Shown: in pieces, positions 47,355 through 48,773 of the stretch | How positions within the stretch are numbered: position 1 is the stretch's first letter | Layout: each line of letters starts with the position of its first letter | DNA from: Shigella phage sb4 | Reading direction: 5' to 3' (one strand) | DNA: 64,000 nucleotides | Sequence record: PQ666542 | Made by a program: the position numbers and the translations under genes | The notes under the pieces: model-generated | The model's input: the letters and a program-made list of their open reading frames with translations, nothing else | What the model was told of the DNA's origin: nothing | The model's database searches: none

Positions 47355-48773
47355 TTATGGATAGGTATAGATTATACCAGTTTCTAAAGCAGTTTTATGA
47401 ATGATGTATTCATTACGCGATTCTTGGACATCGACTTCTGTATAGTCTTTTATCATCTTCTGAAGAGTGTAACGATGCAAGTAATACTTACTATCTGGGT
47501 CGTCAGTTTTCCAATCTTTACCTTCTTCAGTCATTTTTTGGATTTCATCCATAACCCACCAACCGCACCAGATATAAGCTGAAGTACGATGTGGAAGAGG
47601 ATGAACATAAGGCAATTCACCTTCTGGTTCCGGAGCAACTTTATCAGTTACTTGAACTTGACCAGTCGCTTTAACTGTTTTACTATCATAGTCGGTTGCT
47701 GTAACGACAGCAGTAACTTCAATAGTTTGACTTACAACAGATGAGGTGTCAACGGTGTATACGTTAGTTGACCCTTCCACAGGAGAAGAATCTTTCTTCC
47801 ATGAATAAGTAATTTGTGCTGCTTCAGGTGCTCCAGTAACATTAGCTGTAAATGTAGCCGAAGCATCTTGCTGAACGTTAATAGAAGGAGGAGTCAATGC
47901 AATCTGTGGATTCATTGTCTTCTTATTAACAGTCAATGATACTTCATTAGAAGTAACTTCCTTTTCATTGTAATTTTCTGCAGTTACTTGCGCTACACAC
48001 TTAACTGTTTTAGCTCCAACTGTGGTAGGAGTATAGTTAAATGTAGTAGTAGTTTCTCCATCGACCAGAGAACCGTCAACATACCACTGATACGTAGCAG
48101 ACGCTCCTGGTGGCTGTGAAGCCAAGGTAGCAGTAAATTGAACTGGGGTTCCAATAACTCCTGCTGGAGGATTAGCAGGAGTTACGGCTAACGTAGTTGT
48201 CTGTGTTTTCTTATTAACAGTCAGTGACACTTCATTAGAAGTAACTTCCTTTGCATCATAATCTGTCGCGGTTACTTGAGCTACACACTTAATTGTTTTA
48301 ACTCCGCTTGCGTCAGGAGTGTAATTGAATGTAGTGCCAGTTGCTTCGCCCACAGGAGAACCGTCAACGTACCATTGATATGTAGCGTTTGCACCTGATG
48401 GCTGTGAAGCTAAGGCAGCGGTAAATTCAATTGGAGTTCCAATCACTCCAGCATCAGGGCTACCAGGAGTTACAGCTAATGTAGTTGTCTGTGTTTTATT
48501 TTGAACTGTGATAGTTGTAGTAGCTTCTGCCGTTTCAGCATCAGTATCTGGAATTGTATTTGTTGCAACTACTTTAATAGTCTTTTGACCGGCAGGTCCT
48601 TTTAGTACATAACTAAAAGTTGCTTCAGTTCCATCTTGTGGAACATCGTCTACAGTCCAAGCATAGGTAATAGTTCCACCTCCAGTTTCACCACTGGGTG
48701 TAGCAGTAAACTGCTGAGTCTGATCTATAACTCCAGTAGGTGTTTTAGGAGTTATATCAACTGTAAAAGCCAT
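47355..48773 (-). CDS. hoc: Hoc outer capsid decoration protein with four Ig-like domains
   Basis: 472 aa; repeated Ig-like modules (TATYQWYVDGS...VKCVAQVTA) plus C-terminal capsid-binding region; T4 Hoc is 376 aa with three. Confidence 0.85.
   Translation of the reverse strand: MAFTVDITPKTPTGVIDQTQQFTATPSGETGGGTITYAWTVDDVPQDGTEATFSYVLKGPAGQKTIKVVATNTIPDTDAETAEATTTITVQNKTQTTTLAVTPGSPDAGVIGTPIEFTAALASQPSGANATYQWYVDGSPVGEATGTTFNYTPDASGVKTIKCVAQVTATDYDAKEVTSNEVSLTVNKKTQTTTLAVTPANPPAGVIGTPVQFTATLASQPPGASATYQWYVDGSLVDGETTTTFNYTPTTVGAKTVKCVAQVTAENYNEKEVTSNEVSLTVNKKTMNPQIALTPPSINVQQDASATFTANVTGAPEAAQITYSWKKDSSPVEGSTNVYTVDTSSVVSQTIEVTAVVTATDYDSKTVKATGQVQVTDKVAPEPEGELPYVHPLPHRTSAYIWCGWWVMDEIQKMTEEGKDWKTDDPDSKYYLHRYTLQKMIKDYTEVDVQESRNEYIIHKTALETGIIYTYP
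47910..48500. repeat. Tandem direct repeat, two copies of about 294 bp, inside hoc
   Basis: Near-identical DNA blocks starting near 47921 and 48211; encode two near-identical 98 aa Ig-like domains. Confidence 0.7.

Follow-up and report, generated by a model that had tools for sequence, protein, structure and literature searches.

In phage T4, Hoc attaches through its C-terminal domain to the middle of every gp23 hexamer, which amounts to 155 copies on a prolate head, and its Ig-like domains line up in a roughly linear fibre of ~180 Å (PMC10385173). Hoc is implicated in mucus adherence for the T4 family and is widely used as a display scaffold. Its length and the count of its Ig-like domains plausibly set the reach and the binding valency of the fibre. 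[quoted passage not shown] The Hoc of Klebsiella phage PMBT63 has one additional Ig-like domain (PMC13435897), and that of phiPNJ-9 has two Ig-like domains and lacks domain 3 (PMC11853027). Sites of mucin binding have also been reported, namely an S-L-T motif that closes domain 2 and is the MUC2/fucose-binding site in phiPNJ-9 Hoc (PMC11853027), and the MUC2-binding residues E29 and G33 in the Hoc of phage phiPNJ-6 (PMC11150434).

We analysed a stretch of 64,000 nt from Shigella phage sb4 (PQ666542), hereafter the window, which encodes a Hoc of 472 aa. For a Tequatrovirus Hoc of this length, our literature search returned only general statements on domain number and descriptions of other variants. 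We consider it quite probable, taking the three propositions jointly, that the gene is hoc of a Tequatrovirus (T4-like) phage in its common 472-aa allelic form, that its two domain-2 modules, A and B, are old paralogues or allelic types that diverged with no fresh duplication, and that module copy number in this gene has changed recurrently.

Gene identity, neighbourhood and domain plan of hoc

The protein matched PHROG 1149 ('Hoc-like head decoration') with an E value of 4.6e-144 and T4 Hoc (PDB 5vf3_Z, 376 aa) with an E value of 2.3e-207. Residues 1-189 of T4 Hoc aligned to residues 1-189 of the window Hoc, and T4 residues 177-376 to window residues 273-472 (i-Evalue 1e-116). This implies that the length difference between the two proteins corresponds to exactly one 96-aa module. 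The gene lies in the T4-like order inh - hoc - 24.3 - 24.2 - rnlB, near genes 24, 23 and uvsW, as assigned by PHROGs. The PHROG and T4 Hoc matches and the T4-like position bear out the call of this gene as hoc in an earlier note, made from the letters of the sequence, and the lengths of 472 aa and, for T4, 376 aa given there were likewise correct, the surplus being 96 aa. Over the 12 kb around hoc, the window and Escherichia phage ECP2301 are colinear and 96.9% identical, separated by no more than 4 small indels, and the hoc region is colinear with T4 and other relatives too. The features of the locus are as follows.

47333..47350, minus strand: terminator-like hairpin AAGGGGC-TTCG-GCCCCTT, then a T-run, 5 nt past the hoc stop
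47355..48773, minus strand: hoc CDS, 472 codons plus TAA stop, a single ORF without internal stop
47358..47639, minus strand: C-terminal capsid-binding domain, aa 379-472 (PHROG 21694 at aa 408-472, E 1.6e-38)
47640..47921, minus strand: Ig-like domain 3 (T4 numbering), aa 285-378 (Pfam Ig_3 / I-set at aa 289-373)
47922..48209, minus strand: module B, aa 189-284, Ig/PKD-like of domain-2 type, central loop SLVDGE (from repeat finding)
48210..48497, minus strand: module A, aa 93-188, Ig/PKD-like of domain-2 type, central loop SPVGEA (from repeat finding)
48498..48773, minus strand: Ig-like domain 1, aa 1-92 (weak homologous match to the module HMM; all-beta model, pLDDT 86-94)
48780..48784, minus strand: Shine-Dalgarno-like AAGGA of putative function, read from the sequence, which overlaps the inh stop and precedes the hoc ATG by 6 nt
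48783-49463: inh, neighbour of hoc

The terminator-like hairpin has 7 pairs, 5 of them G-C, and is a match to the consensus only. Upstream of inh, the T4 late-promoter motif TATAAATA occurred on the hoc strand only as sites with one mismatch, and no promoter was therefore assigned to hoc. In the divergent intergenic region between inh and uvsW, a 6-bp insertion relative to ECP2301 lengthens a TATAAA repeat (49475-49498, plus strand), and three overlapping copies of TATAAATA at this place face uvsW. In T4 and two other relatives, the gap between inh and uvsW is occupied by a gene for a GIY-YIG homing endonuclease of 205 aa (1144-1761 of L001, L002 and L004); the window (49464-49519), ECP2301 and UGKSEcP1 are without it.

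Matches to Pfam PKD, Ig_3 and I-set lie along aa 109-373 of the window Hoc, the best PKD match within module B spanning aa 196-265. An AlphaFold2 model built with 34 aligned homologues (mean pLDDT 83.9) folds aa 1-378 into four all-beta blocks with a pLDDT of 86-95. Ig-like domain 3, with a pLDDT of 88-93, aligns to T4 Hoc from residue 189 onward. In a Foldseek search against the PDB, the best matches were four-Ig fragments, namely Dscam1 Ig1-4, Sidekick Ig1-4 and ICAM-5 D1-D4, with E values of ~1e-12. The C-terminal domain was modelled at low confidence, and this part of the model was set aside; the domain is assigned by its sequence instead, which is nearly identical to residues 283-376 of T4 Hoc, a domain of solved structure. 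These data support a domain plan of four predicted Ig-like domains followed by a conserved C-terminal anchor domain, and Pfam, AlphaFold2 and Foldseek thus agree with the four Ig-like domains proposed in the earlier note, where T4 has three.

On the capsid, the C-terminal domain (aa 379-472) would fix a single Hoc monomer to the middle of every hexamer of the major capsid protein. Such a position at the gp23 hexamer centre is suggested by the identity of the anchor to that of relatives including T4 (94-96% at the nucleotide level). The four Ig-like domains in a row would then project outward as a fibre, with two domain-2 modules (A, then B) where T4 has one. Because the 180 Å fibre of T4, divided over four domains, gives ~45 Å for each, it is reasonable to expect that a fibre with the extra module would be longer by about one domain, or ~45 Å. 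The S-L-T motif occurs twice, once per module (aa 183-185 and 279-281), and the extra module would accordingly contribute a second copy of this motif reported to bind mucin. Moreover, E29 and G33 are both present in domain 1, and these two residues together with the two S-L-T motifs are sequence hints that the Ig-like domains may bind mucin or other surfaces.

Divergence of the two modules and their relatives in other phages

Tandem Repeats Finder reported one array at 47916-48497 with a period of 288, 2.0 copies, 81% matches and a score of 766, and repeat finding gave two 288-nt copies. When the amino acid sequence of Hoc was compared with itself at successive offsets, identity peaked sharply at 96, with 74 of 96 residues identical against a background of 8-29 at other offsets. 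The repeat is far above chance. Modules A and B lie head-to-tail and in frame, without a spacer, and form a tandem block at 47922-48497. The repeat had been placed at 47910-48500, which is correct to within a few bases, and the period of 294 bp (98 aa) then assigned to it is to be replaced by the measured 288 bp (96 aa). Nor can the modules be called near-identical, as had been supposed: 231 of 288 nt (80.2%) and 74 of 96 aa (77%) are shared between them, with a dS of 0.55. At a dN/dS of 0.27, both modules are under purifying selection. Divergence is strongest in the middle third (dS ~1.1), while the ends of the modules are most conserved and contain the two longest stretches of unbroken identity (24 and 17 nt).

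Strict diagnostic positions that would separate first-copy from second-copy modules amounted to only three columns. As the modules are mosaic, a nucleotide comparison of six hoc genes, with BYEP02 in addition, and a signature in the central loop were used instead. For module A, nucleotide identity is 96% with the sole module of a 376-aa Hoc (L001) and 92-94% with module 1 of a 568-aa Hoc and of another 472-aa Hoc. For module B, it is 94% with the sole module in a second 376-aa Hoc (L002) and 97% with both module 3 of a 568-aa Hoc (L003) and module 2 of the 472-aa Hoc of ECP2301. Either module is hence nearer to modules of other phages, one-module and three-module Hocs among them, than to the one beside it. 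The domain-2 module of T4 shares 90% of its nucleotides with the middle module of L003, 78% with window module A and 81% with window module B. Judged by these nucleotide identities, T4 domain 2 is classed as a third module type.

The A+B block recurs in BYEP02 at 573 of 576 nt (285/288 in A, 288/288 in B). Outside the modules, only 88% of nucleotides in domain 1 and 85% in domain 3 are shared between this phage and the window. The hoc gene of BYEP02 also carries a 77-nt insertion in the C-terminal domain (L010 locus, ~2640-2720), either a real disruption or an error of the record, which splits the gene into ORFs of 439 aa and 59 aa. With module B removed, the window Hoc is 95.2% identical to a 376-aa Hoc, whereas the whole protein reaches at most 92.8% identity to any 472-aa Hoc. 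First-position modules of 472-aa Hocs share on average 88% of their amino acids among themselves, compared to 79% with second-position modules.

To place the window gene in its population, hoc was followed through an evenly spaced sample drawn from 678 matching phage records. Out of 50 full-length matches in Tequatrovirus records, 18 (~36%) spanned 1419-1425 nt in one piece, and the other 32 represented the 1131-nt T4-like form. A search with the Hoc protein returned three length classes of 376, 472 and 568-570 aa, and clusters of the 472-aa protein had up to 167 members. With a profile HMM of the module, the number of strong 96-aa copies found in register was exactly one for Hocs of 376 aa, two for those of 472 aa and three for those of 568 aa. 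The 472-aa Hoc with four Ig-like domains is thus an ordinary and widespread form that is annotated in GenBank.

Modules were typed by their central loop, with SPVxEA denoting type A, SQVGGE type C and SLVDGE type B. This typing is approximate because the modules themselves are mosaics of short variable segments, and its counts were made at the protein level on cluster representatives, which are not independent events. Among 121 Hocs typed in this way, a single module of type C was most frequent (42), followed by A alone (30), while B alone occurred in 4. Two modules were arranged as A-C in 21 Hocs, as A-B in 5, the window included, and as C-B in 1; the triple arrangement A-C-B was found in 4, and a few mosaic architectures occurred besides the typed ones. 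None of the 121 Hocs had an inverted module order, which was always A, C, B. In average-linkage clustering of the module proteins, the middle module of UGKSEcP1 fell within type A, but its DNA is closest to the T4 module, and module clusters at the protein level were therefore likewise taken as approximate.

Sequence quality and origin of the two-module form

Compared to their ECP2301 homologues, at least 20 genes of the window carry together ~32 in-frame nonsense codons (TAA, TAG, TGA), spread over 352-53265. Genes 5, 6, 7, 10, 12, 13, 14, 15, 16, 24, 26 and the lysozyme gene e are affected, including genes of the baseplate, the neck, the head vertex and the small terminase subunit. In the surroundings of hoc, gene 24 (44458-45741) has a stop at aa 264, rnlB (45771-46775) has 4 stops and uvsW (49520-51031) has 3. 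Frameshift errors were considered as the cause of the truncated neighbouring ORFs and rejected, as only 4 indel events in 12 kb separate the window from ECP2301 and none of them falls in those genes; in the alignment the truncations are nonsense point substitutions. Substitutions private to the window were counted in 42000-54000 at sites where the window differs and four relatives agree, and 138 were found outside hoc. They are distributed over codon positions 1:2:3 as 32:25:57 with 49% transitions, compared to 8:4:83 and 86% for substitutions shared with some relative. This suggests that ~0.5-1% of the window bases are substitutions that look unselected, with no indels, which could be due to errors of sequencing or of the consensus, to mutagenesis or to an alteration of the sequence.

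Four residues of the window Hoc, G347V, M441I, P445T and G455E (47358-47735), were found in 0 of 31 relatives of the same class, and their positions do not vary otherwise; three of the four lie in the capsid-binding domain. These changes may be part of that substitution noise. The exact hoc allele may hence contain errors; the repeat block is without private changes and matches BYEP02. Two further regions differ from ECP2301. The products of genes 10, 11, 12 and wac (25338-30813) share 83%, 67%, 64% and 82% of their amino acids with those of ECP2301, compared to 96-99% for surrounding structural genes, and these values indicate that this block of baseplate, short-tail-fibre and fibritin genes is probably mosaic. 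Two ORFs of ECP2301 (111 and 116 aa) have no counterpart at ~6900-10500 of the window, a variable region of small genes.

An assembly artefact, in which alleles of type A and type B were stitched in tandem or a repeat was mis-expanded, might come to mind, given that single-module alleles of both types circulate, that a mixed sample could hold both, and that the window shows other imperfect sequence with in-frame stops. However, the same 576-nt block is present, with 573 identical positions, in isolate BYEP02 from a pig farm, and a 1419-nt hoc aligns in one piece in ECP2301, pSs-1, ime09, HP3, JEP6 and many other isolates. These independent genomes exclude the artefact that the earlier note had named as the finding that would overturn its proposal. 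In addition, copies of 80% identity are too different to result from mis-expansion of a repeat, and neither the reading frame nor the core of either domain is broken. We consider an artefact extremely improbable. That earlier proposal, an expansion of a T4-like gene by tandem duplication, read as a recent event, would require an in-place 288-bp duplication of domain 2 in a T4-like 376-aa hoc. The arrangement of two head-to-tail in-frame copies without a spacer and a surplus over T4 of exactly one module are what such an event would leave behind, and the modules must ultimately descend from some duplication. The two copies, however, differ at 20% of their bases and have a dS of 0.55, and each of them is 94-97% identical at the nucleotide level to modules of other phages, including 376-aa Hocs with a single module type. 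Furthermore, the A-B pair occurs in several other clusters as well as in BYEP02, and the T4 module belongs to the third type. A recent duplication is therefore very hard to reconcile with the data, and we give it little credence.

In a further scenario the two-module form arose once, long ago. The 472-aa alleles would then be one old clade, copy number would not have changed recurrently, and the likeness of the modules to single-module alleles would stem from in-register recombination only. The closer resemblance of first-position modules of 472-aa Hocs to one another (88% aa) than to second-position modules (79%), the fixed order A, C, B, which fits one ancestral array, and the evident and extensive mosaicism are in line with it. 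Nevertheless, A, B and C each occur alone, and A-C, A-B, C-B and the triple are found besides. The presence of all single types, ordered pairs and the triple implies that at least several events of whole-module deletion or insertion were needed. Moreover, removal of one module brings the window Hoc nearer to 376-aa alleles than the intact protein comes to any 472-aa Hoc. A single ancient origin without copy-number change is thus unlikely.

The reading that we prefer is that of old and diverged modules with recurrent change of copy number. Across Tequatrovirus the domain-2 position is filled by one to three modules, which belong to three main types and keep the order A, C, B: T4 has C only, the window A-B, most 472-aa Hocs A-C and the 568-aa Hocs A-C-B. 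Copy number would shift when module ends, which are nearly identical, recombine unequally and out of register, by homologous recombination, and whole blocks of modules would pass between hoc alleles by ordinary recombination. The module identities across phages, the comparison with module B removed, the block shared with BYEP02 and the A/C/B architectures all fit an origin by recombination, and we infer that unequal recombination at the conserved ends is the most likely way in which module copy number changes. As to direction, modules could have been lost from an A-C-B array that was ancestral, or gained when single-module alleles crossed over out of register. A more far-reaching view, in which the domain-2 position is an ordered cassette array A, C, B whose copy number (1-3) and composition are reshuffled repeatedly in the population, by unequal as well as ordinary recombination at the conserved ends of the modules, and thereby vary length, valency and antigenicity of the capsid adhesin, is put forward tentatively, as we consider it rather doubtful. 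The variable module is also the one that ends in the S-L-T motif.

Comparison with known Hoc proteins

The window Hoc brings nothing new in kind. It shares with T4 Hoc (PDB 5vf3, 8t1x; 376 aa) the gene position, homologous domains 1 and 3, and a plan in which a capsid anchor carries Ig-like domains in a row (PMC10385173), and the T4 domain-2 module is homologous to the window modules at ~80%. It differs from T4 Hoc in having one more Ig-like module, and neither of its two modules is of the T4 domain-2 type. The Hocs of phiPNJ-9, PMBT63 and Muldoon likewise combine a conserved anchor with a variable count of Ig-like domains, as is seen in Tequatrovirus. Their sequences are more distant, however, and other domains were gained or lost in them, whereas the variable unit in the window is the domain-2 module. 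Mildly new is the population picture of three module types in a fixed order, with one to three copies and exchange of blocks between alleles. No description of the ordered A/C/B pattern was found in the literature searched, which is no proof of novelty.

Closer counterparts are the 472-aa Hocs of ECP2301, pSs-1, ime09, HP3, JEP6 and BYEP02, which are equal in length to the window Hoc and share its five-domain plan. Over the whole gene, the window hoc is 92-95% identical at the nucleotide level to that of other 472-aa isolates. Most of the 472-aa Hocs are A-C (21), compared to 5 representatives that are A-B as in the window, and domains 1 and 3 of the window form a different mosaic from those of BYEP02. 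The 568-570-aa Hocs of Escherichia phages UGKSEcP1 and UGKSEcP2 resemble the window Hoc in their first module, which is close to module A (92% at the nucleotide level), in their last module, which is close to module B (97%), and in domain 3, which is 96.5% identical. Between these two modules they carry an additional middle module of the T4 type (C), and the window Hoc looks like that form minus its middle module, or the reverse.
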